DNA from: Acidobacteriota bacterium
GTDB taxonomy: Bacteria; Acidobacteriota; Blastocatellia; Pyrinomonadales; Pyrinomonadaceae
Direction of reading: 5' to 3'
Length of the DNA stretch: 64,000 nt
NCBI GenBank assembly: GCA_019239425.1
Contig: JAFAZX010000093.1
Coordinates: 2,932-66,931 of the forward strand
Shown here: one piece after another, positions 1 to 56,671 of the stretch
Layout of the letters: every line of letters begins with the position of its first letter
How positions within the stretch are numbered: position 1 is the first letter of the stretch
Made by a program: the position numbers and the translations under genes
Notes under the pieces: generated by a model
What the model was told of the DNA's origin: nothing
The model's database searches: none
The model's input: only the letters and a program-made list of their open reading frames with translations

Positions 1-1119
1 CAGACGCCTGAACAGGTCGTCCGACTCCCTCTTCGCGCGCTGCCGTACGCCAGCATCGACTCTGTTCCCAGCGCTGACGACCTCGTTCGCCAGATACCAG
101 TTCTCGATGAAGCTCTTGACCTGATTCTTGTTGAACGGCTGGACTTCGACCACGTTCGCGCGTTCCAGCGGGGCATCCTGATAACCCTGTGGGCGTGAGG
201 TGACGACGAAACGGCACCGCGGGTAGTTGCGCAACTGCCGATCTACCCAATGCGATATCGTCTGTCTGTCGCGGGCCTGCGCCACCTCGTCGAGGCCGTC
301 GAGTAGCACCATACACTTTCCCTGTCGAAGCTGGCGCTCGAACCAGTTCGGCGGCGGTTTCAGTTCAGGATAGCGCTCGCCGGAGAAGTACCGCGCGGTC
401 AGTTCTCCGAGCGAGATCGACGGCCGCTCTGTGATGGCCGCCGCATGGTTGCGTAGGAAGAGCAGGATTGGGAAGTAGGCGCGCACCCCGTGGCGCCGCT
501 GCTGATTCGAGGCGAGTGTCGTAGCCACGTGCTGTAAAAGGGTAGTCTTGCCGCACCCCGGCGGGCCTACTATCGAGAGTGCGATGGCGTCTCCCGACTG
601 GTCTTTGCTCGCCCGAACGAAATCCCAGATGCTCCGCGCCCCCTCGAAAGCTTGGGCCGCTATTGGGTCAAGGTTGAACTTATTAGGGTTCTCGGACGGT
701 GAAATCTTCAACTCTACGAAAACCTGATCTAGCTTGAGCGTGAACGTGCTAATCAGCCCAAGCCCACGTACGTTGAAGACCTCGTGGTCGATGATGACCT
801 GCTTGGCGTAACGACCTGCAAACGCGGGTGTGAATTTGCTCGGGGCGGCCCGCAGCCACGTAGCCGTGACCTTTAAGGCGTCCTTCTCAAACTCTTCGCT
901 CCACAGTTTCCCGATAAAACGCGAGACAGCGCCACCGAGGAGGATTATGAGGGCCGCCGTCTCGAAGAGTAGAACGAGCAGCACGACGAGCTTCGGGTGC
1001 GCGTGAATCCAGTCCGAGCGATACCAGTATGCCGTGCTAAGGCCACCCACAAGAATGAGTTGGGATAGTGGGATACCCAACTTTTGGAGTCTCTCTATCA
1101 ACCCCAATCCTTTTTCCAT
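1..1119 (-). CDS. NACHT/STAND-type P-loop NTPase, N-terminal part (3-prime end runs off the window)
   Basis: Minus-strand ORF with ATG at 1119, open to nt 1 (373 codons). It is missing from the ORF track because no stop lies in the window. My translation begins MEKGLGLIERLQKLGIPLSQLILVGG, with two hydrophobic helices. It then shows Walker A GPPGCGKTT (nt 541-567), Walker B-like CMVLLDGLDE and RFVVTSRPQGY, the NACHT pattern. GC and GC3 are visibly lower than in neighbouring genes. Confidence 0.7.
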   Translation of the reverse strand, partial: MEKGLGLIERLQKLGIPLSQLILVGGLSTAYWYRSDWIHAHPKLVVLLVLLFETAALIILLGGAVSRFIGKLWSEEFEKDALKVTATWLRAAPSKFTPAFAGRYAKQVIIDHEVFNVRGLGLISTFTLKLDQVFVELKISPSENPNKFNLDPIAAQAFEGARSIWDFVRASKDQSGDAIALSIVGPPGCGKTTLLQHVATTLASNQQRRHGVRAYFPILLFLRNHAAAITERPSISLGELTARYFSGERYPELKPPPNWFERQLRQGKCMVLLDGLDEVAQARDRQTISHWVDRQLRNYPRCRFVVTSRPQGYQDAPLERANVVEVQPFNKNQVKSFIENWYLANEVVSAGNRVDAGVRQRAKRESDDLFRRL

Positions 1120-1199
1120 TTTTTCCAGCATGTGAGACACCTACGGGATGCAGTCTTCTAGAAATGACTACCAAGGACGCCAGCCGATCGCCTTCTCAC

Positions 1200-1553
1200 T
1201 TAGAGGAGTTCCCTAATCTTTTCGGTCGGACGGCCGAGCACCGCGCGCGCCCCGCGCTCGACGATTGGGCGCTGGATGAGTTCTGGATTCTCGGCCATCA
1301 GGCGGATCAGCTCGTCCTCCGAAACCTCTCGCTGGCCGAGCCCGAGTTCCCTGTAGACGGCCTCGCTCGTGCGCAGAAGCTCGCGCGGCCCAATGCCCAT
1401 CTTCCCTATCAGCTCGCGCAGCTTCGCCTCGCCGATGGGTTCAAGGTAGTAGTTGACCTTCTCGTAATCGTACCCGCCCTCACGGAGCAGTTTGTCGGCC
1501 TCGCGGCACTTCGTTCAGGTCGGCTTCTCGTAGACCGTGATTCTGTCGTCCAT
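1200..1553 (-). CDS. ArsC/Spx/YffB-family thioredoxin-fold protein with in-frame TGA (candidate selenocysteine) at the catalytic Cys position
   Basis: ATG at 1553 follows a GGGGAAGGA Shine-Dalgarno. The frame reads MDDRITVYEKPT, then TGA (1517-1515), then TKCREADKLLREGGYDYEKV. It continues in frame into track ORF 1200..1400 (...ENPELIQRPIVERG...). Total 118 codons, the usual ArsC-family size. The TGA aligns with Cys12 of plasmid R773 ArsC (ITIYHNPACGTSRN). Confidence 0.65.
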
Positions 1554-1565
1554 GTCCTTCCCCCT

Positions 1566-2846
1566 TTATGGAAATATCCCGCGCACGCGGGTCGCCTCGG
1601 CCACGCGGCCGATGGCGACGATGTAGGCGCCGGTGCGCATGTCCGTGCGGAAGCGCTCGGCCGCGGCGTAGACGCCCGCGAAGGCCGTGCGCATCGTCTG
1701 CTCCAGAGTCTCGCGCACGCGGTCTTCCGTCCAGAAGTAGCTGTACTGATCCTGCACCCACTCGTAATAGCTGACCGTGACGCCGCCCGCGTTGGCGAGG
1801 ATGTCCGGCAGGAGGAAGACGCCGCGGTCGAAGAGGATGCGGTCGGCGCCGGGCGTGACGGGGCCGTTCGCCAGTTCCGCGACGACGCGCGCGCGCACGT
1901 TCTCGACGTTGGCGAGCGTGATGCCGTTCTCAAGCGCCGCCGGGAGCAGCACGTCGCACTCGACCTCGAACACCTCGTCGCGGCCGATGGGCTGCGTGTT
2001 CGGCAGGTCTTCGACGGTGCCGGTCTCTGCCTTGTGCCTGAGCGCGGCCTGCACGCCGATGCCGTGCTCGTTGAAGACGCCCGCGCGCGAGTCGGCGATG
2101 GCGACGACGCGCGCGCCGTCCTCGCTTGAGACGAGACGCGCGAAGTTGGCGCCCGCGTTGCCGAAGCCGTGGATGGCGATCCGCGCGTCCCTCAAATTTA
2201 TCCCGCGCACGCGGCAGGCCTCGCGCACGGCGTAGAGGCAGCCGCGCGCCGTCGCCTCGCCGCGCCCCTGCGAGCCGCCGAGGGCGATGGGCTTGCCCGT
2301 CACGACGCCCAGCTCCGTGTGGCCGCGCACCATCGAGATGGTGTCCATGATCCAGGCCATCGTCTGCTCGTCGGTGTAGACGTCGGGCGCGGGGATGTCC
2401 CGGTCGGGGCCGATGATGGGCGCGATCTCGAAGGCGTAGCGCCGGGTCAGGCGTTCGAGCTCGCCCTGCGACATCGACTTCGGGTCGCAGACGACGCCGC
2501 CCTTCCCCCCGCCGTAAGGGATGCCGACGGTCGCGCACTTCCACGTCATCCAGGAGGCGAGCGCCTTCACCTCGTCGAGCGTCACGCCCGGGTGGAAGCG
2601 GATGCCGCCCTTGGCGGGGCCGCGCGCGACGTTGTGCTGCACGCGGTAGCCCTCGAAGACGCGCACGTGGCCCTCGTCCATCTTGACGGGGATCGAGACG
2701 ACGAGCTGCCGCTTGGCGTGCTTCAAGACCTGACGCATCGAATCGTCGAGGTCGAGGTAGTTGGCGGCGGCGTCGAACTGCTGCTGCGCGATCTTGAAGG
2801 GGTTGAGTTCCTCCGCGGGTTTGGCCTGCGCGGTCTGTAGGCTCAT
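1566..2846 (-). CDS. gdhA: NAD(P)-dependent glutamate dehydrogenase
   Basis: Track ORF 1566..2894. KGGIRFHPGVTLDEVKALASWMTWKCATVGIPYGGGKGG matches the Glu/Leu/Phe/Val dehydrogenase active-site region. I moved the start to ATG 2846 (MSLQTAQ...), which has an AGAGGA SD. Confidence 0.9.
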   Translation of the reverse strand: MSLQTAQAKPAEELNPFKIAQQQFDAAANYLDLDDSMRQVLKHAKRQLVVSIPVKMDEGHVRVFEGYRVQHNVARGPAKGGIRFHPGVTLDEVKALASWMTWKCATVGIPYGGGKGGVVCDPKSMSQGELERLTRRYAFEIAPIIGPDRDIPAPDVYTDEQTMAWIMDTISMVRGHTELGVVTGKPIALGGSQGRGEATARGCLYAVREACRVRGINLRDARIAIHGFGNAGANFARLVSSEDGARVVAIADSRAGVFNEHGIGVQAALRHKAETGTVEDLPNTQPIGRDEVFEVECDVLLPAALENGITLANVENVRARVVAELANGPVTPGADRILFDRGVFLLPDILANAGGVTVSYYEWVQDQYSYFWTEDRVRETLEQTMRTAFAGVYAAAERFRTDMRTGAYIVAIGRVAEATRVRGIFP

Positions 2847-2897
2847 AAGGGTTCGTCCTCTCTGTTGAGAATTACCCCCCCCTCTGCTCGCCATGAA

Positions 2898-2994: not shown

Positions 2995-3303
2995 TCACTC
3001 TTCCGCCTTCTCTTCTATCCCAAGGATGTCGCCTTCGGTGAAGAGGTACGTGCGCATGTGTTTGTCGAAGACGGGGTTGCCGCGGCGCAGGTATTCGAGG
3101 GCCATCATGGCGTGCTCGATCTCCTCGTCGCGGTTGTGCGCGAGGATGCGGCGGAGCTGCTCGTCCTTCGTCACCTCGACCCGCTGGTTGTACCAGTCCA
3201 CCGCCTCCAGCTCCTCCTGCAGAGACTTCAAAGCCCTCGAAAAGTTGAGCGTCTCTTCGCTCATCTGCCCGTAGCTCTCGTGCCACTCGCTGCTCGTCGC
3301 CAT
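2995..3303 (-). CDS. Encapsulated-ferritin-like (EncFtn family) ferritin-like protein
   Basis: 102 aa. LQEELEAVDWYNQRVEVTKDEQLRRILAHNRDEEIEHAMMALEYLRR...HMRTYLFTEG closely matches, from memory, Rhodospirillum rubrum EncFtn (MEELEAVDWYDQRV...ILAHNRDEEKEHAAMTLEWLRR...HLRTYLFTEG). Confidence 0.75.
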   Translation of the reverse strand: MATSSEWHESYGQMSEETLNFSRALKSLQEELEAVDWYNQRVEVTKDEQLRRILAHNRDEEIEHAMMALEYLRRGNPVFDKHMRTYLFTEGDILGIEEKAEE

Positions 3304-10000: not shown

Positions 10001-12622
<2,622 letters not shown>

Positions 12623-19051: not shown

Positions 19052-21094
19052 TTATTTCGTCTCGCCCAATTTGGCTTTGATTCTGGCCGTGTCGACGGCT
19101 TCCGCCGAGAGGGAGAGAGCTTTGCGCCAAGAGGCTTGCGCCTTTTCCTGCTGGCCGAGCTTCTTGAAGAGGTCGCCCAGGTGCTCTTGAATCGTGGCCG
19201 AAGTCGGGTTGCGGCGTGCCGCGTCACTTAGATAACGTTCGGCCTCTTTCAGTTTGCCGAGCTTGTAATAGACCCAGCCCAAACTGTCCAGGAAAGAAGG
19301 GTTCTGCGGCTCGGCGCGGAGGGCGCGCTCGATCATGTCGCGCGCCTCTTCCAGCTTCTGGTCGTGCTCCGTGAGGAAATAGCCGAGGTTGTTGAGGGCC
19401 GTCGCGTTGTTCGCGTCCTTGGCCAGAATCTGGCGGAGCGTCTCCTCAGCGCCGCGGTTGTCGCCGGCGCGCTCCTGCGCCGAGGAGAGCATAATCAGCG
19501 CGTTCGTCGTCTGCGCCGGGTCTTCGGCCGAGGCGAGCGAGAGCGCCTTGCGGGCGGCCTCGACGGCCTCCGTGCCCTTCCCCGCGCTCATCAGCACGTT
19601 CGAGATGAAGAGGTACTCTTCGAAGTCGCTCGCGTCGCCCTTCAGCCGGGGCCGCAGCAGCGCGAGCGCCTCGTCGGTGCGCCCGAGTTCGGCGAGCGTC
19701 TGCGCCTCCTGCCGGAGCAGGCGCGGGTCTTCGGGGAAGCGCTGGCGCGCGGCGCGCACGCCCTGAAGCGCCTCGGCGCGCTTGCCGTTCGAGCGGAGGA
19801 ATTCGACCTTCTGGACGTCGGCGGTCGGGTCGTTGTCTGGGAGCAGCGCGCGCATGCGCTCGAAGACGGCCATTGCCTGGTCGGTCTGCCCCGCCTGCTG
19901 GCGCAGGCCCGCGACCTCCATGAGCACGGAGACGGCGAAGCGCCGCTCGCGCTCGTTGGCGAGCGGCGTGTCTTTGATGTTGCGCGACGCGAGGAGGTCT
20001 TCGTAGACGCCGACCGCCGCCTCGAAACGCGAAGCGTCCTCGTAGACCTTGGCGAGCGTGAGTTGGAGTTGGAGCTTCTCCACATCGTCGCCGGGCTTGA
20101 CGGCGGCGATCGAAGCCTTGAGAGTCTCGACCGCCTCTTCAACCTTGCCGGTGCGCGCCTGCGCGCGCGCGAGCGTCTGCGCGGCGCCGCTGTTGGAAGG
20201 GTTCGCCGCGACGATGCGCTTCAGCTCCTGGATGACGCCGGAGTCGGCCGCGCCGCCGGCCTCGAACGCGTCGCCGAGCAGTTGCAGGTAGCGCGGGTTC
20301 TCGGGCTCGATGGCCATCGCGCGGCGGATGGCGGCGACGGCCTCTGCCGGCTGGCCCGCGCCGAGCAGGACTTCGCCGAGCCTCGCGTTGGCCGCGTCCG
20401 GACTCAGCTCGCGCCCCTGCGTGACGACCTGATAGAAGCGACCTTCCATCGAAGCGGGCAGAGTCGCCCACGTGCGCAGGGCCTCGACCGCCTCCTTCTC
20501 GCGCCCCGTCGCGACGTAGAACTCTGCGAGGAGCGCGTAAGCTTCGGCGTCGTTCGGGTGAACGCGGAGCACCTCGCGCAGTTCCGCGACGGCCTTGTCG
20601 GCGGCGGGGCGGTTGATAGACTTGTCGGCGAGCCCGCTCTGGAGCGTGTAGACGCGCGCGAGCGTGCGGTGCGCGCCGTAGCTGTCGGCGTTGGCGCGGA
20701 CGGCGGCCTGCGCCTCCGACTCGGCCTGCTTGAGGTCGTTGGTGATGAAGTAGGTCTCCGCGAGCGCGGCGCGCGCCTCTGAGAGTGTCGGTTCGAGTTC
20801 GGCCGCCTGCTGGAAGGCGGCCTGCGCGCGCCTCAAGCCTTCGAGCGTGAGCGTCCCCGAACGGACGCCCTCGAAGTAGCGCTGGCCTTCGAGCAGCTTG
20901 GCGTAGGCTTGGGCGCGGCGCGCGAGCGCGGGCGTCTGCGGCTGCGCGGGCGTCGCCTGGGGCTGGGCCGGCGTCGCGGGCCGGGCCGGCGCGGGCTGCG
21001 CGTGCGTGGCGGTGGCGACAAAGCAGAGGGCCGCGAGCGCGCAGGCCGCGGGGCCGCCAAGAAGGGGCCGGGCGGGACGTGCAGAGAGGTTCAA
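19052..21094 (-). CDS. Secreted TPR-repeat protein
   Basis: Signal peptide, then many TPR-like units (e.g. AERYLSDAARRNPTSATIQEHLGDLFKKLGQQEKAQASWRKAL). Confidence 0.8.
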   Translation of the reverse strand: MNLSARPARPLLGGPAACALAALCFVATATHAQPAPARPATPAQPQATPAQPQTPALARRAQAYAKLLEGQRYFEGVRSGTLTLEGLRRAQAAFQQAAELEPTLSEARAALAETYFITNDLKQAESEAQAAVRANADSYGAHRTLARVYTLQSGLADKSINRPAADKAVAELREVLRVHPNDAEAYALLAEFYVATGREKEAVEALRTWATLPASMEGRFYQVVTQGRELSPDAANARLGEVLLGAGQPAEAVAAIRRAMAIEPENPRYLQLLGDAFEAGGAADSGVIQELKRIVAANPSNSGAAQTLARAQARTGKVEEAVETLKASIAAVKPGDDVEKLQLQLTLAKVYEDASRFEAAVGVYEDLLASRNIKDTPLANERERRFAVSVLMEVAGLRQQAGQTDQAMAVFERMRALLPDNDPTADVQKVEFLRSNGKRAEALQGVRAARQRFPEDPRLLRQEAQTLAELGRTDEALALLRPRLKGDASDFEEYLFISNVLMSAGKGTEAVEAARKALSLASAEDPAQTTNALIMLSSAQERAGDNRGAEETLRQILAKDANNATALNNLGYFLTEHDQKLEEARDMIERALRAEPQNPSFLDSLGWVYYKLGKLKEAERYLSDAARRNPTSATIQEHLGDLFKKLGQQEKAQASWRKALSLSAEAVDTARIKAKLGETK

Positions 21095-21606
21095 GCCAGT
21101 GTTCCTTTCGCGGCCCGCACAGGGTCGCCTTCCCCGCCTTCGGTCGCGCGGACGACCGCGGCCCAGGCCGCGCGCCGCGGGTAGCAGTAGGCGAGCACGG
21201 CGATGGCGATGACGCCGAAGTAGAGCATGTCCGTCCCGGCGCCCGTCATGACGCTGATGAGGAAGCCCAGCACCGCGATGACGGCGGCGATGGCGGCGAC
21301 GATGACGGTCGTCGTCTGCAAAGTCTCAAGCAGTCCCGCAGCGCCGCGCAGCGCCGCGATGTCTTGCAGGCGCATGGCCTGAAACCGCGTGCGCCGGAAG
21401 ACGATGGCGCCGAGGCCGAGGAAGATGACGACGAGGCGGAGCGTGTTGGCCGCCACGGGGTTGAAGCGGACGGCCCCCGAGAGGAAGCCGGAGATCGCGA
21501 CCAGCATCAGCAGCAGCGTGAAGACGCCGACCAGCTTCACGACGTTCACGGCCGACGTATGCCTGCGCGCCAACTCGCCCTGCGTGCCCTCGACAGTCTG
21601 TGCCAA
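21091..21606 (-). CDS. Integral membrane hypothetical protein
   Basis: Four predicted hydrophobic helices. Its stop overlaps the TPR gene start by 4 nt, suggesting translational coupling. Confidence 0.55.
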   Translation of the reverse strand: MAQTVEGTQGELARRHTSAVNVVKLVGVFTLLLMLVAISGFLSGAVRFNPVAANTLRLVVIFLGLGAIVFRRTRFQAMRLQDIAALRGAAGLLETLQTTTVIVAAIAAVIAVLGFLISVMTGAGTDMLYFGVIAIAVLAYCYPRRAAWAAVVRATEGGEGDPVRAAKGTLA

Positions 21607-27434: not shown

Positions 27435-28340
27435 CTAGTACGCGCAGCGGTAGCTGTAGTGCTCGTAGACGGCGCGCCACTTCCCGCCCTCGCGGCGGTA
27501 GGCCTTGTAGGTCGTGCCCTCGAAGCTGCCCGCGGCGGTGAAGAACTCGGCCACGCCGTCGCCGTCCGCGTCGAGCTGGTCGATGAACGTCTCGGCGAGG
27601 AAGCCGCCCTTGCCGACCTCGCCAATCGCCGAAGCGTCCATCATCTCGCGCGCGTTAATGCGGTCGTACTTCTGGAACGCGGCGTCGTAGCCGTTGCCCT
27701 TCGGCGCGGCGACGAGGAAGAGTTCGTCCCTGACCTTCGGGCCGCTCTTGACGAGGTAGGTGCCGACCAGCTCCTCGCGGCCGTCGCCGTCGAGGTCGGT
27801 CGCGACGAGGTCGAGCGCCGCCGTCCTGACGAGCGCGGCGGCGCTCACGCGGTTCTGCTTGAGAATTGACTTCGCCAGGCGGAGCGCGCCCGCACGCTCC
27901 GCAGCGGTCGGAGCCCGCCTCGAACCGCGCGCCCGCAGCTTGAGCGTGGCGTCGGTGGCGAGCGCCGTCGAGTCGCGGCCGAGCCGCGCGCTCGTGCTTA
28001 CTGCGACGCGCGCGGCCGAAGGCGCACACTCGCCCTTCGAAGCTTCGCGTATCGTCACGGAGCCGGCCTCCGCGCCGCCGTAGAGGAGACGGTACTTCGC
28101 CCCCGGCTTGTAATAACGCTCGGAGAGGGACGTGGCCGAGAACTCGCCGTCAGCGCCCGGCTCCACGAACGCGCCGCGGCCGTCGATGAAGGCGACCGGC
28201 TCGACCTGATATTCGCCGCCCTCAACCCTTGAGGCGACGAAGACGGCGAACGTCCCTTGCGCCTGCCGGGCGCGGAGCGCCGGCGCGGGGCCGAGCAGTA
28301 GAGTGAAGACGACGAGAGCCCCGCCTATCCGTGTGCGCAT
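27435..28340 (-). CDS. Secreted hypothetical protein with FG-GAP/VCBS-like DxDGDG motifs
   Basis: Signal peptide MRTRIGGALVVFTLLLGPAPALRA. Motifs TDLDGDGREELVG and DADGDGVAEFF. Confidence 0.55.
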   Translation of the reverse strand: MRTRIGGALVVFTLLLGPAPALRARQAQGTFAVFVASRVEGGEYQVEPVAFIDGRGAFVEPGADGEFSATSLSERYYKPGAKYRLLYGGAEAGSVTIREASKGECAPSAARVAVSTSARLGRDSTALATDATLKLRARGSRRAPTAAERAGALRLAKSILKQNRVSAAALVRTAALDLVATDLDGDGREELVGTYLVKSGPKVRDELFLVAAPKGNGYDAAFQKYDRINAREMMDASAIGEVGKGGFLAETFIDQLDADGDGVAEFFTAAGSFEGTTYKAYRREGGKWRAVYEHYSYRCAY

Positions 28341-34676: not shown

Positions 34677-35102
34677 TCAAGCGTCGAGAAAGCGCGAGCG
34701 CACCTCGGGCGGCGGCAGCATACAACTGTCGTACTTGCCGAAGAACTTATAGCGGTTGCGCGCGAACAGGTCGTACAGGTAGTCGCGCAAGTGCCGCGGC
34801 AGAACCTTCGCCGCGAGGAAGAGTCTCCAGAAGCCGCCGAGGTAAGACGCGACCCTGAGCGCCGCGTCGGAGCGGACGTGGACGCGCTCGCCGCCCGGCG
34901 TCTGCTCGACGAAGACGACCGAGTCCACGCCTCGCAGCTCCGGATGCTTTTCGATGACGGCCTGACCGTAGTCGCTCTGGAGCGCGGCGAAGCGCATATA
35001 GCCCTTCCGGTCGTGGTCGAGTATCAACTGCACCGACTTGTTGCAGAAGCCGCACACGCCGTCGTAGAGCAGGACGGGCGCGCCGACGGATGTTTCTACC
35101 AT
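34677..35102 (-). CDS. DCC-family thiol-disulfide oxidoreductase (DUF393)
   Basis: [21 protein letters not shown] is the DCC motif. Confidence 0.8.
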
Positions 35103-39247: not shown

Positions 39248-39333
39248 AGTGAATGGTAAATGGTAAATGGTAAATGGCGAAAAGACAAAGAGGGTCTTCT
39301 CGCCATTTACCATTCACCATTTACCATTCACTA
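39248..39333. repeat. Heptamer-periodic hairpin element, GGTAAAT/GGTGAAT family (about 38-bp stem)
   Basis: agtgaatggtaaatggtaaatggtaaatggcgaaaagac / gtcttctcgccatttaccattcaccatttaccattcacta. It touches the uvrB ATG and contains the upstream gene's TAG (39331-39333). Confidence 0.9.
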
Positions 39334-42300
39334 AGCGGGCGTGGGCTGGCTCGAACTGATCTGGTAGATGGCCTCCATGACGGCCGAGCGGACTTCGGTC
39401 GGGAGCGAGCCGCGCACCGCGAGGCGGCGGAAGGCCGGGAGGACTTCCTTCTGGCCGGAGAGCGCGAGCAGCTTGACGACGGCGAGGCGCACCTCGTTGT
39501 TCGGGTGGCTCTCGATGGCGCGCAGGAGGGGCTGAACCTCGCCCGCCTTCGCCATCAGGAAGAGGAGCGAGAACGCCTCGTAGGTGCGCTCGCGGCTCTC
39601 GCCCGTGAGCTGCGAGATGGACTCGCCGGCGAGTCCCGAGTCGGCGATGGCCGCGCCGATCTCGCGGCGGCGCTCGGGCGCGGCCTCGCGCAAGGCGCGC
39701 GTGAAGGAATCGGCGCGGTCGGCGCGCAGCTCGTAGAGTGCGCGCGCGGCGGCCGACCGGACGTCCTGCGAGCGGTCGTCGAAGGCGGAGCAGATCTGCT
39801 GGAACGCCTCGTCGGTGTCGACGTGCGAAAGCTCGATGATGGCCGCGGCGCGCTCGCGCGGGTCTGTGCTCGCGATGCGCTGCTGGATGGAGGCGGGCAC
39901 CGTGGACGACTCGTCGAAGGGCGCGAGTCCCTTCTCGGGCGCGGGCTGCTGCGCGGCCGGCTCGTAGGCGACCTGCTCCGGCTCGCGCACGAAGGGCGAC
40001 GGCCCCGCGGCCTCTTCCGCGACTTCGATCTCACGGCCCGGCTCTGCGTGCGAATCGACGTGCGACTCGGCGAACGGCTCGGCTTGAGGTTCGGCAACGA
40101 GTTCGAGCTGAGTCTCGGCGGCGGGCGCGGGCTGTTGTTCTTCGACCTCTTCGACTTCGTTGCTCACGGAGTCGGCGAGCGTTTCACCTGACGAAGTCTC
40201 GAAGACAGGTTCGGTGACCGCAGGCTCGGGGGTCGCTTCGGCGGCGGGCTGACTCGCGTCGCCCATCTCGCTGATGTCGAAGTCGAACCACTCGCCCGCG
40301 GCGGGCTCGATGCCGACCTCTTCCGTGACGGCGGCGGCAGGCTCTTCGAACGTCGCGGCCGCTTCCGGCTCGGTCTCGACCAGCGGCTGTTCGAGTTCGA
40401 CGAAAGGCTCGACCGCGGTCTCCGAGACCAGCTCGAACGGCTCTTCGGCGTGGACGGGTTCGGGCACGTGCGCGGGTTCGCCCGTCGCCTCGGCCGCGGG
40501 TTCGGGCGCGACGAACGGCTCGGGCGCGGCCGTCTCTTCGACGAAAGGAGCGATGGAGACCGAAGTCTCTTCGGCCGTCTCCGGCGCGGCGACTTCAGCC
40601 GCGGGTTCCGGCGCGGTTTCGACAAACGTCTCTTCGACCGGGGCAAGCTCGACCGCCGCCGCCTCGTCTCTCTGTTTGACGACGGGCGCGGCCTCGGGTT
40701 CGAGGGTGGGCGCGGGTTCAGTCGTCTCGGCGGCGGGCGCGGCGGGCTGCGGCTCTGCGGCGGCGGGGGCCTGCGCGAAGTCTTCGCGGCAGAACTCGAC
40801 GGCGGTGCGGATGACGCGGGGCGGGATGCGGTTGCGCTCGTTCCTCTCGCGTTCGAGCAGCGCTTCGAGCGGCCCGACGGCCGAAGGGTCGCGCAACGCG
40901 CCGAGCGCTTCCACGGCCGCGCGGCGCACGTCCATCACGGGGTCTTCGAGCGCGGCGACGAGCAGCGGCGTGGCCTTGCGGTCGTTGAGGATCGCGAGCG
41001 AGCGGGCCGCGGCCGAGCGTTCGGCGGGCGCGTCCGCTTCGCGCAGGTCGCGCGCGGTCTCTTCGAAGTAGCCGTGCTCGACGAAGGCGGCGCCCGCGCG
41101 CTCGCGGCGTTGGACGTTGCGGCCGGCGAGCGCCGCGAGCAGTTCGGCGGCGACCATCTGCCGCGTCATCGCGTCGCGCGAGCCGATGACCGCGCGGTCG
41201 TACTGCCCGCCCCCGAGCAGGTTCTGCGTCTCCGACAGAATGCGCTCCGGCTCGGGCGCGTATGCCGGCTCAATCTCCGCGACCGGCGCGTGGGTTTCTT
41301 CAACCGAAGGCGCAGGCGTCTCCGCCTCGACCGGCGCGACCTCTTCGGTCTCGACTTCCGGAGTGACGGAAGCGACGAAGGCCGGCGCCGCGGTCTCGGC
41401 GGGCGACTCCGCGACTTCGAAAGGCTCCGGCTCGGCCGTCTCGACGGCGGGGGCGACGACCTGTCCAGAGGGTTCTGGCTCGGCGACGACTTCGGCGACC
41501 TCTTCGGTCGCGACGGCCTGCGTGACTTCGGCCGGCTCTTCCCACGCAGGCTCTTCGACGGCGGGAGTTTCGACCAGGGCGCTCTCGTCGACAAACGTCT
41601 CTTCCGCGGCCGCGGCCGTTTCGACAGGAGGAGTTTCGACGGCCGGCTCTTCGTGAACGAGCGTCTCTTCGACAACCGGCTCAGCTACCTCGTCCTGCTC
41701 GGCCACGGCTTCGACGGCGGCGGCCTCTTCAACGACCTGGGCGGCGACCGTCTGCTCTTCGACTGCCGGCTCTTCGACGACAGGTTCTTGAGCGACGGGC
41801 GCGGCGACGTCGGTTTCGGCGACGGCTGTGACTTCGGTGCGTGCGGGTTCTTCGACGCGCGCGCCCTTCTTCTTGCGCTTGGCCTCCTGCCTCGCCTCTT
41901 TCTTTGACTGCTTCTTCGACTTCGCGACGACCGCGCCGGCCACGACCGGGTTCACGTCCGCCGCCGAAGCATCCGACACGCTCAAGGGTTCGGCCTTGCT
42001 CACGGTCGAAGCTTGCGCGGCGGCCGTCGCGTCCGTGAGTGCCCTGGCCGTCTCCTCCTTCGCGCGCGTCGTCGTCGTCGAACCTTCGCTCAGGCCTTCG
42101 ACCGGCGCGGGCGGTGTCGAGGCGGCGCGGCGCCCCGCGAAGACGAGTCCGAGGCCGACGACGACCATGCCGACGACGACGAGCACCCACCAGTTCTGTA
42201 GAAGGTACGCGCCGAGCGAGGTGCCCGTCTGCGTCGCGGGCTGGCTCGTGGTGATGGGCGCGATCTGCGCGGGCGGCTGCGCCTGCGCGATCTCGGTCGC

Positions 42301-43071
42301 AGGCGTCGCGGCCGGGGACGGCTCCTGCGTCGGCTCGACGGAAGCCTGCTGGGGATTCTGCGCGGCGGGCTCGGTGCCCGTCTGAGTCTGCGTCGGCGCG
42401 GCGGCGGGCGGGACGTTGTTGACGGTCGCCGGGTTCGAGGCTTGGGCCGCGCGCGCCGTCTCTTCGGGCGTGGGCTGGCGGCGCTCGCTCGCGGGGTTCG
42501 CGGCGGTCTGATTGTTCGCGGGCTGTCTCTGCTCGTTCGGCTGCGCGGTTCTGTTCTCCGCGGGCGGAGTCTGCTGCTGTGGCTGCTGCTGTTGCGTTGC
42601 AGACTGTTGCGCCGAGGCGTCGCCGGGCACGTCGAAGACCACGTCGAGGCGGTTGAACTTCTGCTCGACGCGCGGCTTCGCGCCGGGCGCGACGCGGTAG
42701 GAGAGCACGACCGAGTCGCCGCGCTGCTGCACCTGCATGTCACTGTAGCCGCGCCCCGAGCCGCTCCCGCGCGCGCCGGCCGCCGCCTTCGGCAGCACGA
42801 CGTAGAAGCGGTCGCCGCTGCGGTAGGCGGAGTAGTCCTTGAGCGTGTCGTCGGCCGTGATGGTCACGCGCGAGCCGCTGCCGCTGTCGCTGCTGCGGAC
42901 GCCGACGACGCGCTTCGACTTGTTGCCGCCCGAAGCGTTGTCGTTCCCCTGACGTTGCGCGCTCGCGCCGCCGGCCGAGAGGAGGGCGGTGAGCGCCAGC
43001 GCCGCGACGAGGACGACGAGCAGTTTCGTACGCATTTGGCTGTGCATCTGTGAGCTGGACTTCAGGGGCAT
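39331..43071 (-). CDS. Bitopic AMIN-like / TM / acidic low-complexity / HEAT-repeat protein (paralogue 2)
   Basis: Signal-like MRTKLLVVLVAALALTALLSAGGASA. AMIN-like beta domain (RVTITADDTLKDYSAYRSGDRFYVVLP...NRLDVVF). One TM (WWVLVVVGMVVVGLGLVF). Long E/A/V/P-rich tracts. PBS-lyase-type HEAT units (ALEDPVMDVRRAAVEALGALRDPSAV). The start is uncertain: 43116 TTG, or ATG at 43071, 43047 or 43035. Confidence 0.7.
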   Translation of the reverse strand: MPLKSSSQMHSQMRTKLLVVLVAALALTALLSAGGASAQRQGNDNASGGNKSKRVVGVRSSDSGSGSRVTITADDTLKDYSAYRSGDRFYVVLPKAAAGARGSGSGRGYSDMQVQQRGDSVVLSYRVAPGAKPRVEQKFNRLDVVFDVPGDASAQQSATQQQQPQQQTPPAENRTAQPNEQRQPANNQTAANPASERRQPTPEETARAAQASNPATVNNVPPAAAPTQTQTGTEPAAQNPQQASVEPTQEPSPAATPATEIAQAQPPAQIAPITTSQPATQTGTSLGAYLLQNWWVLVVVGMVVVGLGLVFAGRRAASTPPAPVEGLSEGSTTTTRAKEETARALTDATAAAQASTVSKAEPLSVSDASAADVNPVVAGAVVAKSKKQSKKEARQEAKRKKKGARVEEPARTEVTAVAETDVAAPVAQEPVVEEPAVEEQTVAAQVVEEAAAVEAVAEQDEVAEPVVEETLVHEEPAVETPPVETAAAAEETFVDESALVETPAVEEPAWEEPAEVTQAVATEEVAEVVAEPEPSGQVVAPAVETAEPEPFEVAESPAETAAPAFVASVTPEVETEEVAPVEAETPAPSVEETHAPVAEIEPAYAPEPERILSETQNLLGGGQYDRAVIGSRDAMTRQMVAAELLAALAGRNVQRRERAGAAFVEHGYFEETARDLREADAPAERSAAARSLAILNDRKATPLLVAALEDPVMDVRRAAVEALGALRDPSAVGPLEALLERERNERNRIPPRVIRTAVEFCREDFAQAPAAAEPQPAAPAAETTEPAPTLEPEAAPVVKQRDEAAAVELAPVEETFVETAPEPAAEVAAPETAEETSVSIAPFVEETAAPEPFVAPEPAAEATGEPAHVPEPVHAEEPFELVSETAVEPFVELEQPLVETEPEAAATFEEPAAAVTEEVGIEPAAGEWFDFDISEMGDASQPAAEATPEPAVTEPVFETSSGETLADSVSNEVEEVEEQQPAPAAETQLELVAEPQAEPFAESHVDSHAEPGREIEVAEEAAGPSPFVREPEQVAYEPAAQQPAPEKGLAPFDESSTVPASIQQRIASTDPRERAAAIIELSHVDTDEAFQQICSAFDDRSQDVRSAAARALYELRADRADSFTRALREAAPERRREIGAAIADSGLAGESISQLTGESRERTYEAFSLLFLMAKAGEVQPLLRAIESHPNNEVRLAVVKLLALSGQKEVLPAFRRLAVRGSLPTEVRSAVMEAIYQISSSQPTPA

Positions 43072-43158
43072 CGCTTGGGTCCCAGGAACAGGGTTGCGGG
43101 CGGCGACATTATGCAATAGCGCGGCCGGCTTGTCATCAAAACAAATCTTCGCGCCGCC

Positions 43159-45615
43159 TCACGCGACCACCAGCGTCTGCGCGCGCTGCGCGCGCTCGAC
43201 CGTTTCGAGGATGGAGCGGCGCACCCTCTCGGGCATCCCGCCCTCGTCCGCCAGACGCCGCAGCCGCTCGACGACCTCCGCCGTCAGCGAGTCGCCGAGC
43301 AGTTGCACGCAGGTCAGGCTCGCCTCGTCGTCGCGGTGCGAGCCGATGGCGTCGAGCAGCGGCCCCGGTTCGCCGCCCGATGCGCAGAGCGAGAGCAGCG
43401 AGAACGCCTCGTAAGCCTGCCGCCTGTCCTCGCTCGTCAGGCGACCGACGGCCTGCGTGGCGAGGCCGGCCTTGACGCACGCGTGCGCCACGTCGCCGAG
43501 CGTGCGCGGGTCGGCCGTCTCGGCGACGCGGACGTAGGCCTCGGCGCGCTCGAAGCTCAGACGCGAGAGTGCGCGCGCGGCGGCGGCGCGGACTTCGCGC
43601 GCCTCGTCGGCGAGCGCCATGATGACGTGCGCGAAGACGGACTCGTGGTTGATGAGTCCGAGGCTGTTGACGGCGGCCGAGCGGACGGTGCCCTCGGCGT
43701 CGTGGCGCGCGGCGCGCGCGAGGGCCGCGACCGCCCGGCGCACCTGGAACTGCGCGAGCTGCTGCGCGGCGGTGGCGCGTGACTCCGCGTCCGTGCTCTC
43801 GACGCGCACGAGCGCGACGGCGAGCGCCTCGTCTTCGCAGGACTCGGGCAAGTCCTCGTAGTCCGTCGCGGGGACGAGGGCGCGCGTGTTGAAGTCCGAG
43901 GTTGACTCTCGGGAATCGGCCCGCCCGCGCGCGAAGGCGGGCGCGTGGCGTTCGAGTTCGAGCGACTCGACCGAGCAGGCCGTGAGCGCCGGGCCGAGGA
44001 TGTTCGCCGGGATGTCCTGGTGGCGGCGCGCCACGTCGAGTAGTGCGCCGATGGCCGTGGGCAGGCCGAGGGCGCCGAGGCTCTGCACGCACTCGGTGCG
44101 GACGAGCGGGTCGTGGTCGTAGAGCGCTTCGGTCAGGAACGGGAGCGCCTGGGCTGACTTCATGTCGCCGAGGGCGCGCGCGGCGCTCACGCGCTCGAAG
44201 GTCTCGCCGCCGAGCAGGAGCGAGGCGCAGGCGCGCGCGACGAAGCCGTAGTCTTCGAGCGCGATGCGCGCGCGGCGCTGGCCGTCCTCGTCGGTCTCCT
44301 GCGCGCGCAGCGCTTTGAGGAGCGAAGTCTCGACCGCGCGGCGGTCGTCCGAAGCGCGCGAGGCGAGGACTTCGATGCTGTGCGGGCCGCCCGCGACGAG
44401 GCTCGCGACCTCCTGGTCGATGCGGTAAGAGCCGTGGACGACCGACGGCTCCGACGCGTGCGGCTTCAACTCGGCGGGGCGCTCCTGGCCGGCGGCGGCT
44501 TCGGCTCCCAACTCGCGGCCGCGCCGCGTCGCCTCGTCCTCCGCGCCGCGGCCGGCCTTGCGCCGCTCGAAGGGGACTGTGACGTCCGTCTTGCGGCGGT
44601 CGCCCTTGAAATGCTCGAAAGACTTCTGCGCCTTCTCGGCCTTCTCAGTCTTGTTCGACTTCTCCGCGGCGGGCGCCTTCTTCTTCTTCGTTTCGCCCCG
44701 GCGTCCTTCGTCGCCCTCTTCTTCGCCCGAGCGCCTGCGCCTGACGAACATGCCGACCGAACCCGCGAGGCCGATGCCGACCACCGCGAGCAGCGAAGGC
44801 AGCGAAAGGAGGTATGACATCAAGCCTTCGCCTCCCTCCGTCTCGACCTTAACCTCCGCCGGCTGCGCGACCGTCTGCGGGTTCGGCTCCTGCGGCGCGG
44901 GGCCGATGGAGCTGACCGTCTCGGGTTGTGCGTTCGGTTGAGCGGCGGCCGGCGCCGCCTGCGTCTGCGCCGGCGGCGGGGTGACGGCGGACAGAACCAG
45001 CGCAGGACGCGCCGGCTCAGACAACAGGGCCTCCGCCGCGCCGCGGCGCTTCGACTCGGCCCGCGGCTGCGGCGCGCGTTCGAAGGCCCCGCCCTCCGCC
45101 GCCTCACGCGGCGCGGGCTGCGTGCGACTCTGCGGACGCTCCGGCTGCGCCTGCTCGACGGGGAAGTTCTCGACGTTGAGCGCGCCGCCGCCCGTCAGGA
45201 CGAGGTCGAGGCGGTTGCCGTGCGGCTGGACGGTCACGTTCGCGCCCCGCTTGACCGGCACGACCAGCTCCAGAGAGTTGCCGACGCGCTGCACCCTCAC
45301 GCCGCGCGTCGAGCCCGCCGCCTGCCCGTTGACGAGCACGACGTGGAAGCCTTCGGCGTCCTGCCAGGTCTGCGCGCGGTTGAGCGAGCCGTCCGCCGAG
45401 ATGGAGACGACGTTGCCCGAGGAGGAGACGCCGGTGACGGTGACGGCCGGCTCGTGGTAGCGCTGCTGAGCGCGCGGCTGCTCCGGCCCGCTCAGCGCGA
45501 GCGAAACGCCCGCCGCCGCGACGAGACCCAGGCGCACGCAGCGCGAGCCGAGCGCACTGCGGCTCCACGTCTGCAGCAGCACGGCAAAGTCGTGTCCGTT
45601 CGATTCCTTGTTCAT
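43159..45615 (-). CDS. Bitopic AMIN-like / TM / HEAT-repeat protein (paralogue 1)
   Basis: Same architecture as paralogue 2: AMIN-like VVSISADGSLNRAQTWQDAEGFHVVL...NRLDLVL, TM LLSLPSLLAVVGIGLAGSVGMFV, and HEAT units (ALYDHDPLVRTECVQSLGALGLPTAIGAL). The C-terminal YEAFSLLSL...PLLDAIGSH block is shared with paralogue 2. Confidence 0.75.
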   Translation of the reverse strand: MNKESNGHDFAVLLQTWSRSALGSRCVRLGLVAAAGVSLALSGPEQPRAQQRYHEPAVTVTGVSSSGNVVSISADGSLNRAQTWQDAEGFHVVLVNGQAAGSTRGVRVQRVGNSLELVVPVKRGANVTVQPHGNRLDLVLTGGGALNVENFPVEQAQPERPQSRTQPAPREAAEGGAFERAPQPRAESKRRGAAEALLSEPARPALVLSAVTPPPAQTQAAPAAAQPNAQPETVSSIGPAPQEPNPQTVAQPAEVKVETEGGEGLMSYLLSLPSLLAVVGIGLAGSVGMFVRRRRSGEEEGDEGRRGETKKKKAPAAEKSNKTEKAEKAQKSFEHFKGDRRKTDVTVPFERRKAGRGAEDEATRRGRELGAEAAAGQERPAELKPHASEPSVVHGSYRIDQEVASLVAGGPHSIEVLASRASDDRRAVETSLLKALRAQETDEDGQRRARIALEDYGFVARACASLLLGGETFERVSAARALGDMKSAQALPFLTEALYDHDPLVRTECVQSLGALGLPTAIGALLDVARRHQDIPANILGPALTACSVESLELERHAPAFARGRADSRESTSDFNTRALVPATDYEDLPESCEDEALAVALVRVESTDAESRATAAQQLAQFQVRRAVAALARAARHDAEGTVRSAAVNSLGLINHESVFAHVIMALADEAREVRAAAARALSRLSFERAEAYVRVAETADPRTLGDVAHACVKAGLATQAVGRLTSEDRRQAYEAFSLLSLCASGGEPGPLLDAIGSHRDDEASLTCVQLLGDSLTAEVVERLRRLADEGGMPERVRRSILETVERAQRAQTLVVA

Positions 45616-45760: not shown

Positions 45761-46537
45761 TCAGCGCTGTTCGTCGCTGAACTTGTAGCCGATGCCCCAG
45801 ACGGTCAGAACCATCTGCGGGTTCTCGGGGTTGTCCTCGATCTTGGCTCGCAGGCGGTTGATGTGCGAGTCGATGGTGCGGTCGTAGCCCTCGTAGGAGT
45901 AGTCCCAAATCTTCTCCAGGAGGTACTTCCGCGGGAAGACGCGGCCGGGGTTCGAGGCGAAGAGCCGAAGCAGCTCGAACTCTTTGGGCGTGAGTTCGAC
46001 CTGCCGGTCGCCGACCGTCACCTCGCGCTTGGCCGGGTCGATGCGGAGGCGGCCCCTGAGAATCGGGGCGTCCTCGCTCGTCTCGGAGCGCGAGGCCGCG
46101 CGGACGCGGCGCATCACGCTCTTGATGCGGGCTTCGAGCTCGCGCAGCGAGAAGGGCTTGGTGATGTAATCGTCCGCCCCCATCTCAAGGCCGAGCACCT
46201 TGTCAACCACGTCGTCCTTGGCCGTCAGCATCAGGATCGGGATGTACGCGGCCTTCTCCCGCAGCTCGCGGCAGACGGCCAGCCCGTCCATTTTGGGAAG
46301 CATGAGGTCGAGGACGATGGCGTCGGGGCGGTCGTTCAAGGCCGCCTGGACGCCGGAGAGTCCGTCTTCCGCGGTCTGCACCGTGTAGCCAGTGCGCGAA
46401 AAATACTCGGTGATGGCTTCGAGAATCTTCTCGTCGTCTTCGATGATGAGGAGCTTGAGCTTGCGCTCGCCCACCTCGATCTTCTCTTCACCAGTGTCCT
46501 TCACGTCGGGATTGGCGGCGGCAGATTTTTGAGTCAT
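45761..46537 (-). CDS. OmpR/PhoB-family response regulator (no adjacent histidine kinase)
   Basis: Start moved to ATG 46537. Receiver motifs LLIIEDD, DLMLPKMDG and LTAK. Winged-helix output domain (LTPKEFELLRLF...VWGIGYKF). Confidence 0.9.
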   Translation of the reverse strand: MTQKSAAANPDVKDTGEEKIEVGERKLKLLIIEDDEKILEAITEYFSRTGYTVQTAEDGLSGVQAALNDRPDAIVLDLMLPKMDGLAVCRELREKAAYIPILMLTAKDDVVDKVLGLEMGADDYITKPFSLRELEARIKSVMRRVRAASRSETSEDAPILRGRLRIDPAKREVTVGDRQVELTPKEFELLRLFASNPGRVFPRKYLLEKIWDYSYEGYDRTIDSHINRLRAKIEDNPENPQMVLTVWGIGYKFSDEQR

Positions 46538-46717
46538 CGCGGAACGGTTAAGAGACGTGCCACTGCGGGCGCACGCCCCGGGACACCAAGAACTATAGCG
46601 AACCGGCCGACTAAACTCAAGCAATAAATAATCTTGGGCCGACGGCACTGTCCGGGAGGAAACACAGGCCGGCCCTCAGCCCTCGCTCTTTCAAAGGCGT
46701 CGAGTGTGTGATATTTA

Positions 46718-53037: not shown

Positions 53038-53544
53038 ATGACCCCCAACAGACAACAGAATCAGAAAAGTTCGACGCCCGGCCCCCTCCGTTACGGATGC
53101 GGCATCCTGAGCATCTGCGGCTCCCTCGTCAGCCTCATCTTCGTCTTCGCCGCCATCAGCGACCTTATCTCCGGCCGCGAACCGGATAAGACGGGCGTGG
53201 TCATCGGGCTACTCTTCTTCTTCGTCGGGCTGGCCGCCATCGGCGTGTTTGCGGCGTGGAAGTTTATGCGCCGCACGCCCGCGCCGCCGGACTTCGACCT
53301 CGAGAACAGGATTCTACAGCTCGCCGCGGCGAAGGGCTGCCGGCTGACCGTGGGGATGGTCGCGCTCCACTGTCGCGCGAGTATCGAGGAGAGCCGCGCC
53401 GCGCTCGAACGGATGGCTCTGCAGGGCGCGGCGAACGTGCAGGTCGAGAACGACGGCAACATCGTCTACGACTTCTCAGACCTCCTGCCCCCGCCGCACG
53501 AGGCCCGCCCACGTGCGGGCGAGCGGCCGATGCAGCTTCCCTGA
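53038..53544 (+). CDS. Hypothetical membrane protein (2 TM plus small C-terminal soluble domain)
   Basis: High GC3. Two hydrophobic helices. No recognisable SD. Confidence 0.5.
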   Translation: MTPNRQQNQKSSTPGPLRYGCGILSICGSLVSLIFVFAAISDLISGREPDKTGVVIGLLFFFVGLAAIGVFAAWKFMRRTPAPPDFDLENRILQLAAAKGCRLTVGMVALHCRASIEESRAALERMALQGAANVQVENDGNIVYDFSDLLPPPHEARPRAGERPMQLP

Positions 53545-56495: not shown

Positions 56496-56671
56496 TAATT
56501 ATCTGCACTATCAGTCTCAAGTGAACGGAAATTTGGACGTAAAGACGCGAACTTATACGCCCCCCGGACATTAAAGTTTCGCGCGCAGTTTTCCCTCCAC
56601 GCGCGCGCGGACGCGTGGTAATATTTCTGCCGCCGTCACCCCAGAGCGGCTCGGGACAGGGGTTCTCCGCG

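Follow-up and report, generated by a model that had tools for sequence, protein, structure and literature searches.

Several kinds of selenoprotein related to the arsenate reductase ArsC have been described. ArsC selenoproteins with a U-x-x-S motif, where U is selenocysteine (Sec), were reported from the Sargasso Sea by Zhang, Fomenko and Gladyshev in 2005 (PMC1088965), and this family is listed as 'Arsenate reductase 1, pfam03960' in the Global Ocean Sampling (GOS) data (PMC2398784). Another family, 'Arsenate reductase 2', which has a U-x-x-C motif and is assigned to cd03032 (the Spx-like ArsC subfamily), was identified in marine GOS samples by Zhang and Gladyshev in 2008 (PMC2398784), and the 2022 catalogue of prokaryotic selenoproteins includes both ArsC families, the U-x-x-C one as 'Arsenate reductase-like protein, COG1393, UxxC' (PMC9312934). 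Desulfotalea and Desulfuromonas, too, have ArsC-like selenoproteins on record (PMC1794560). For Acidobacteria, Zhang et al. 2006 listed four selenoproteins belonging to three families (PMC1794560, Table 2), which places Sec users in this phylum. Our literature search found no paper linking selenocysteine with Pyrinomonadaceae, Blastocatellia or Chloracidobacterium, and the main text of Peng et al. 2016 mentions neither Acidobacteria nor ArsC. Here we analyze a 64,000-nucleotide stretch of contig JAFAZX010000093.1 from an Acidobacteriota bacterium (assembly GCA_019239425.1; the whole stretch is hereafter the window), in which an ArsC-like gene on the minus strand, at 1553-1200, carries a TGA at the position of the catalytic cysteine. 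Judging from the comparative data, the gene very probably is functional and encodes a selenoprotein in a Pyrinomonadaceae-like acidobacterium. An earlier, sequence-only reading of the window had proposed a selenoprotein at this site and suggested that ArsC-like Sec proteins were known from metagenomic surveys, which the published reports confirm (PMC1088965, PMC2398784, PMC9312934).

An ArsC-like frame with a TGA at the catalytic position

The open reading frame (ORF) of the ArsC-like gene (1200-1553, minus strand) extends from the ATG at 1553-1551 to the TAA at 1202-1200 and comprises 117 codons and the stop. A single in-frame TGA is present, at 1517-1515, which is codon 13; the N-terminus thus reads MDDRITVYEKPT-*-TKCREADKLLREGG, and, with the TGA read as Sec, the product would run from M1 through U13 to L117. 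The frame and the position of the TGA had been given in the sequence-only reading, and translation reproduces both sets of coordinates, with one correction: the frame is indeed open beyond the TGA, for 104 sense codons and not for 105, the latter number being reached only if the stop is counted. Also in agreement with that reading, the ORF track holds only a C-terminal fragment of 66 amino acids, mechanical ORF finding and the public gene calls both giving no other piece of the gene (1200-1400, from Met52). A purine-rich, Shine-Dalgarno-like sequence, GGGGGAAGG, can be read directly at 1556-1564 (minus strand), 2 nt upstream of the ATG.

For profile searches, Cys was substituted for the residue encoded by the TGA. 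The resulting protein matches PF03960 (ArsC) over residues 8-115 with an E-value of 2.7e-23 and 82.5 bits, against a cut-off of 24. Within NCBIfam, the TIGR00014 arsC model gives 101.1 bits, a near miss of the equivalog cut-off of 106.05, and on this score the protein does not qualify as an ArsC equivalog; TIGR01617 (Spx/MgsR) gives 70.3 bits, below its cut-off of 75.05, and the specific Spx models score far below theirs. No selenoprotein-specific ArsC model was returned by NCBIfam release 20.0, which fits with the truncated annotation of the gene. The best match among solved structures is the putative arsenate reductase 3RDW (E=5e-22), and the alignment with R773 ArsC (1I9D/1JZW; E=3e-15) is ungapped over 113 residues. 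In this alignment, codon 13 (1515-1517, minus strand), the putative Sec codon, falls on the catalytic Cys12 of R773 ArsC, and the codons for Arg61 (1371-1373), Arg95 (1269-1271) and Arg108 (1230-1232), all on the minus strand, correspond to Arg60, Arg94 and Arg107, the oxyanion-binding triad of the R773 enzyme. Codons 13 and 16 (U13-T-K-C16) align with Cys10-x-x-Cys13 of the 131-amino-acid Spx (3GFK). Hence the assignment to the ArsC family, the placement of the TGA at Cys12 of R773 ArsC and at the first Cys of the Spx CxxC motif, and the redox motif U-T-K-C, all of which had been proposed before any database was searched, agree with the profile and structure-sequence alignments.

A large protein collection contains 5,248 relatives of the window protein, of which the best 120 were aligned (alignment A1). 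These 120 homologues are full length and 72-89% identical, and many of them are labelled as Pyrinomonadaceae or Acidobacteriota 'arsenate reductase'. Cysteine-containing orthologues do align over the TGA: 118 of the 120 have Cys at codon 13, within a C-x-x-C motif that is mostly C-T-K-C. The codon for Cys16 (TGC, 1506-1508, minus strand), the second residue of U-x-x-C and the putative resolving Cys, is invariant in A1, as are the three arginines; in the Sec forms, C16 is fixed by the search pattern itself. On this alignment, the window gene and its C-T-K-C homologues are a Sec/Cys pair. For eight independent orthologues of the Cys form (P0009, P0007, P0005, P0013, P0022, P0033, P0053 and P0056) the DNA was obtained, and codon 13 is TGC or TGT in all eight. 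In viral contigs, the Cys-form pattern gave no matches.

Sec forms are absent as full-length proteins from the protein collection because gene callers stop at TGA, and were therefore sought in DNA, with the degenerate pattern TAYGARAARCCNACN-TGA-NNNNNN-TGYMGNGAR, that is, Y-E-K-P-T-UGA-x-x-C-R-E. At least 120 GTDB species-representative genomes contain this pattern, as do at least 120 soil metagenome contigs from JGI. All 120 listed genomes are metagenome-assembled genomes (MAGs), and 71 of them are labelled Pyrinomonadaceae; the others include Acidobacteriota, Blastocatellia, Chloracidobacterium sp. and Terriglobia/Terriglobales, as well as Ca. Sulfotelmatobacter, Ca. Angelobacter, Acidobacteriaceae, one Gemmatimonadota and two unclassified genomes. 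Two of the TGA-form loci, L121 and L031, lie on the complete chromosomes OY969475.1 and OY969111.1. Among the 240 listed matches, counted with the window's own strain left out, the ArsC-like frame remains open for 100-112 codons past the TGA in 218; contig ends truncate another 17, and the remaining 5 are short. Many of these ORFs themselves end in TGA, so that UGA is an ordinary stop codon in the respective organisms. The family is diverse, at least one Terriglobia-type TGA form (L043) being only about 40% identical to the window protein. The ratio of nonsynonymous to synonymous substitution rates (dN/dS) between the window gene and its Sec-form or Cys-form relatives is 0.08-0.22; by this measure, the ArsC-like gene is under purifying selection. 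A stop at the position of a catalytic Cys across hundreds of lineages, followed by a conserved frame, is the pattern by which selenoproteins are usually recognised in comparative analysis, and the distribution of the TGA form indicates that Sec decoding would be widespread in Pyrinomonadaceae and other soil Acidobacteriota.

Three of the five short TGA-form ORFs look like frameshifts in long-read MAGs; in the long-read 'MFD' MAGs L024 (7220, plus strand), L043 (2033-2372) and L075, the TGA form appears to be frameshifted soon after the TGA, which could reflect either true pseudogenes or errors at homopolymers. A TGA form beyond Acidobacteriota is found in L040 (Gemmatimonadota MAG CAYYIS010000008.1; 7227, plus strand), with the hairpin GGGAGGC-loop-GCCUCCU; another, L210, lies outside Acidobacteriota or in a divergent lineage and also has a different downstream hairpin. 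Spread or origin of the Sec form beyond Acidobacteriota could account for these cases, as could mis-binning of the L040 contig.

Three contigs, which come from at least two ENA samples, encode the 66-amino-acid product. Contig L001 (ERZ27313880) shares the TGA and, with 6 mismatches in 11,400 nt, is 99.947% identical to the window; contig L002 (ERZ27313804) is identical to the window over its 505 nt and ends short of the TGA.

The hairpin downstream of the TGA in Sec and Cys forms

A hairpin of the selenocysteine insertion sequence (SECIS) type, CUGCUC-CGUGA-GGGCGG, is located at 1490-1474 (minus strand), on codons 22-27 (L-L-R-E-G-G). It starts 24 nt after the UGA and consists of six pairs, two of which are U.G, and a 5-nt apical loop with G-U-G; in the whole 64 kb, this is the only case of a TGA followed within 18-41 nt by a hairpin with a CG[G/U]GA loop and at least 5 bp. 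Searched against Rfam, the sequence yields no SECIS or other family at the gathering threshold, and the matches around the gene at E<=10 are chance matches only.

The Sec forms split into two classes by their hairpins. Class 1 (alignment A2), of the Pyrinomonadaceae/Blastocatellia type, consists of 164 unique sequences, the window included, and pairing was computed on 148 distinct ones. The protein motif of this class is U-[TS]-K-C-R-E-x-D-[KR]-L-L-R-E-S-G, a Met start 12 codons before U is common to 127 of the 164 sequences, and the hairpin, G-CUGCUC-CG[U/G]GA-GAG[C/U]GG-C, extends from about +27 to +45 relative to the U of UGA. In the 7-bp helix, 97.8% of the cells are paired, compared to 30-65% after shifting the 3' arm by 1-3 columns (n=148), and pair 30-42 is represented by GC in 90 sequences, GU in 56 and AU in 2. 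The window hairpin corresponds to the class-1 element, modified by a change of Ser26 to Gly.

Synonymous variation in class 1 collapses exactly at codons 22-27. Leu22 is CTG in 158 of the 164 sequences and Leu23 is CTC in every one; Arg24 is CGT (110) or CGG (54) and never CGC, which five codons before is the preferred Arg codon (119/164); Glu25 is GAG in 157 of 157, and Ser26 is encoded by AGC or AGT only. For comparison, another conserved Leu of the gene, at +27 codons, has a codon entropy of 2.3 bits.

Class 2 (alignment A3), of the Terriglobia/Sulfotelmatobacter type, includes 48 sequences with an unrelated hairpin, GGUCA[A/G]G-loop-C[U/C]UGAC[C/U], at +18 to +36. Here, 98.8% of the helix is paired versus 14-57% after sliding, and nine sequences show a compensatory exchange of A-U for G-C. 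The loops of both classes are small and contain G, a property that bacterial SECIS elements have in common (PMC1088965). One orthologous family thus has hairpins at two non-homologous positions, over codons L-L-R-E-S-G in one class and E-V-K-R-V-L-T in the other (L107, L111, L004 and L018, among others), which suggests independent acquisition of Sec or relocation of the element. The hairpin that the sequence-only reading had offered as a candidate SECIS, at 1490-1474 and 24 nt past the UGA, is, then, the conserved and synonymously constrained element of this family.

The same codons were compared in the eight Cys-form DNAs. Arg24 is CGC in six of the eight Cys forms versus none of the 164 Sec forms (Fisher p=8.5e-10), and Leu23 is CTC in three of eight versus 164 of 164 (Fisher p=4.7e-8), although these tests treat related sequences as independent, so that the p-values are indicative only. 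At both codons the window gene agrees with the Sec forms (CTC and CGT), a combination present in only two of the eight Cys forms. The hairpin is lost in all three Cys forms with TGT. P0005 and P0013 (L245 3001-3354 and L246 3001-3354), both with TGC, keep the exact hairpin CUGCUCCGUGAGAGCGGC; they resemble 'fossil' SECIS elements that a very recent Sec-to-Cys conversion has left behind, or else Cys forms poised for Sec. The most similar Sec and Cys forms (L026 versus P0030) are 92% identical as proteins, and clusters at 92% identity or more contain both forms. The pattern as a whole fits recent, repeated exchange between Sec and Cys, with decay of the SECIS after loss of the UGA, although each individual event may have gone in either direction.

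Proposed decoding and rival explanations

We infer from these comparisons SelB-dependent decoding, the selenium content of the product, its chemistry and its substrate. The ArsC-like gene is probably co-transcribed with the glutamate dehydrogenase (GDH) gene immediately upstream. The hairpin at 1490-1474, which lies inside the coding sequence, would serve as the bacterial SECIS for UGA13: SelB, in complex with GTP and Sec-tRNA(Sec), would bind the small, G-containing apical loop and bring Sec to the UGA, and the product would be a protein of 117 residues instead of a peptide of 12. This protein is predicted to adopt the thioredoxin-like fold of ArsC (glutaredoxin clade), with Sec13 in place of the nucleophilic Cys12 of R773 ArsC. 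In the proposed reaction, attack on the substrate would be by Sec13, with Cys16 as the resolving residue, the oxidised enzyme probably closing a Sec13-Cys16 selenenylsulfide that cellular thiols would then reduce. The enzyme would be an oxyanion or thiol reductase of the ArsC type, and its substrate may be arsenate, another oxyanion or a disulfide; a housekeeping redox role is argued for by the conserved neighbours, which are gdh and radA and not ars genes.

Several observations weigh against a functional selenoprotein gene. The closest relatives of the window protein in the database are Cys forms, 85-89% identical, and the nearest other Sec form among the matches listed, L088, is 84.6% identical. 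The Ser26-to-Gly change converts U-A to U.G at pair 32-40, a state found in 2 of the 148 class-1 sequences (the other being the Sec form L146), and the closing position of the window hairpin is unpaired, as in 23 of the 148; from the alignment, we consider the element to be intact but at the weak end of its family. Its folding energy is no better than that of shuffled sequences (z = 0.2 to 0.7), and in this respect the low rating given to the hairpin in the sequence-only reading stands; as a verdict on the element it does not, given a conserved family hairpin that is 97.8% paired. In a genome with 67% G+C, folding energy relative to shuffles is uninformative, and it is by the comparative data, not by energy, that the hairpin is judged to be beyond chance. 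Perfect hairpins are kept by two of the eight Cys forms, and therefore the hairpin alone is no proof of current Sec use. As to the Sec-insertion machinery, ARAGORN detected only a tRNA-Gln in the 64-kb window, and no tRNA-Sec was found in L003-L062 or any other related locus (1.5 Mb); tblastn with approximate E. coli SelA, SelB and SelD queries found none of the three genes in the window or in the 1.5 Mb of loci, and the 46 ORFs that lie beyond 12.9 kb in the window gave, in Pfam scans, housekeeping genes and no Sec-insertion gene. However, sel genes need not be linked to a selenoprotein gene, so that their lack in the window and the related loci is absence of evidence only.

The alternative that best survives the comparison, albeit an improbable one, is that the gene is a recent pseudogene of this strain, a Cys form whose TGC was hit by a C-to-A nonsense mutation at codon 13 and which is dead but has yet to decay. 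A single base change would be enough, and the proximity of the Cys forms, the two weakening changes in the window hairpin and the unverified Sec machinery of the source genome are all compatible with such an event; furthermore, a fresh mutant of one of the two hairpin-bearing kinds of Cys form would look alike. Nevertheless, the mutation would have to hit exactly the codon at which hundreds of lineages have TGA, and the ORF, the start codon and the Shine-Dalgarno-like sequence are otherwise free of lesions. CTC and CGT, both diagnostic of Sec forms, occur together in the window gene but in only two of the eight Cys forms, and the Ser-to-Gly variant of the hairpin recurs in L146, which is itself a Sec form. 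Finally, the TGA allele is common to two strains that differ by 6 single-nucleotide polymorphisms (SNPs), and so has persisted in the population.

Less probable still is the possibility that the UGA is recoded to a residue other than Sec, either by a SelC*-like tRNA-Cys acting via SelB or by an acidobacterial allo-tRNA with a UCA anticodon. Allo-tRNAs, possible nonsense suppressors, are reported from Acidobacteria, and SelC* tRNA-Cys that mimics tRNA-Sec from other phyla (Mukai et al., PMC5389517); moreover, sequence data do not identify the inserted residue. However, the reports of SelC* concern anaerobic Firmicutes, Thermodesulfobacteria, Nitrospirae and Proteobacteria and not Acidobacteria (PMC5389517). 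The codon occupies the classic Sec/Cys position of a redox motif, the shape of the hairpin is one that SelB would be expected to recognise, and insertion of Cys gives no evident reason for hundreds of lineages to maintain a UGA with a constrained hairpin instead of TGC. Were decoding by a non-Sec tRNA nonetheless the case, the signature would be that of a regulated switch for read-through of a redox enzyme, one that does not depend on selenium. A sequencing or assembly error, with TGC or TGT, only one base away in the Cys forms, as the true codon, is excluded for practical purposes as the source of the TGA because the same TGA is present in the window and in L001, two assemblies that differ elsewhere by 6 SNPs, and because at least 240 unrelated assemblies also have TGA at this site.

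The reading that we favor remains a functional gene for a U-x-x-C selenoprotein, as put forward by the sequence-only reading; it is supported by the Sec/Cys pair, the conservation of the TGA and the hairpin constraint that is specific to Sec forms.

Gene neighborhood and comparison with known ArsC-type proteins

The GDH gene (1566-2894, minus strand), identified by matches to Pfam ELFV_dehydrog_N and ELFV_dehydrog in the corresponding L001 gene, ends with a stop codon at 1568-1566, 12 nt before the ATG of the ArsC-like gene and on the same strand. GDH is directly upstream of the ArsC-like gene in 138 of the 219 loci and RadA is downstream in 93. GDH occupies the same position in the Cys-form loci L245, L247, L249 and L251-253, the order in Cys-form genomes being alanine racemase, TonB_C protein, EncFtn-like protein, GDH, ArsC-like gene and RadA. 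No ars genes (arsR, arsB/acr3) were found within ±4 kb of the gene in the 219 loci. The gene for the EncFtn-like (encapsulated-ferritin-like) protein is present in the window at 2995-3303 (minus strand), and this neighborhood is common to Sec-form and Cys-form genomes (L243, L246 and L247); in L243 and L246, GDH is missing and the EncFtn-like gene directly precedes the ArsC-like gene. In place of the RadA that most relatives have, the window has, at 1-1130 (minus strand, running off the window start; L001 10270-13197), a 975-amino-acid NACHT NTPase/FGE-sulfatase protein, which is a local break of synteny.

The 55 ORFs of the window include rpsF-rpsR-rplI, pth, prs, rpe, rsmB-fmt-def, aroC, uvrB, purC, groES-groEL and serA. 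The gene for the replicative helicase DnaB (10001-12622, minus strand; L001 1-1400), encoding 873 amino acids, contains an intein with a LAGLIDADG homing-endonuclease domain, the order of Pfam domains being DnaB, DnaB_C, Intein_splicing, LAGLIDADG_3 and DnaB_C. A DCC1-like thiol-disulfide oxidoreductase (PF04134, E=9e-26) encoded at 34677-35102 (minus strand) is an ordinary Cys form. Two adjacent genes at 39331-43116 and 43159-45615 (minus strand) encode proteins of 1261 and 818 amino acids that match HEAT repeats only, and an OmpR-type response regulator at 45761-46648 adjoins them. ORFs with a high G+C content at third codon positions (GC3) and no Pfam match at E<=1e-5 are located at 56615-58876 (plus strand), 27435-28340 (minus), 53038-53544 (plus) and 21091-21606 (minus), one of them encoding 753 amino acids. 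Candidates for other selenoprotein genes in the window, that is, GC3-filtered pairs of ORFs joined by a TGA, all turned out to be gene junctions or antisense noise; a BLAST screen of the 1.5 Mb of related loci for further Sec/Cys pairs recovered mostly conserved antisense frames, none of them convincing after filtering.

The window gene belongs to a kind of selenoprotein, ArsC-like, that is already catalogued, although this member is unannotated, and for selenium biology the case is therefore confirmatory. For annotation, the 66-amino-acid mis-call must recur in hundreds of acidobacterial MAGs with the TGA form, and a family rule combining YEKPT-U-xx-CRE with the hairpin would correct many of these entries. 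The family also offers a clean natural experiment on the exchange of Sec and Cys, with forms up to 92% identical and a SECIS that appears to decay at synonymous sites once TGA gives way to TGY, and its two non-homologous SECIS positions could serve the study of SECIS movement within coding sequence.

Compared to R773 ArsC, a glutaredoxin-coupled arsenate reductase, the window protein belongs to the same fold family and keeps the position of the nucleophile (Cys12/Sec13) and the arginine triad; it differs in having a putative Sec for Cys, an additional Cys at +3 and a TIGR00014 score under the cut-off, and its gene is not in an ars operon. With Spx/MgsR (1Z3E, 3GFK) it shares the ArsC fold and an N-terminal CxxC-type motif at the same positions, but the match is weaker (E about 1e-12) and the TIGR01617 score is under the cut-off; Spx is a regulator of Firmicutes and, to our knowledge, lacks the ArsC arginine triad. 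The candidate SECIS resembles that of E. coli fdhF in being a hairpin within the coding sequence, shortly past the UGA, with a small, G-containing apical loop, whereas its sequence is unrelated, no Rfam model covers it, and it takes two positions in one family.

Among the described ArsC selenoproteins, 'Arsenate reductase 1' is likewise a PF03960 protein with Sec at the position of the catalytic Cys12 (PMC1088965, PMC2398784), but has U-x-x-S, in keeping with C-G-T-S of R773, unlike the window family, which has U-x-x-C with an invariant second Cys. 'Arsenate reductase 2' is closer in its motif: it is a COG1393/ArsC thioredoxin-fold protein in which Sec takes the first Cys position of a CxxC-type motif near the N-terminus (UxxC), and it has many Cys homologues and a SECIS-like hairpin just past the UGA (PMC2398784, PMC9312934); MAM02162.1 is a published member. 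However, 'Arsenate reductase 2' is a marine family of the cd03032 type, whereas the window protein comes from soil Acidobacteriota, is nearer to true ArsC (101 bits with TIGR00014 versus 70 with Spx/MgsR) and keeps the arginine triad; the two are set apart by description and profile scores. Tentatively, and with the balance somewhat against such a separation, the window family could represent a third subtype of ArsC selenoprotein, which would combine the ArsC arginine triad with UxxC, linkage to gdh, membership of the Pyrinomonadaceae core, a SECIS at two class-specific positions and frequent toggling between Sec and Cys.

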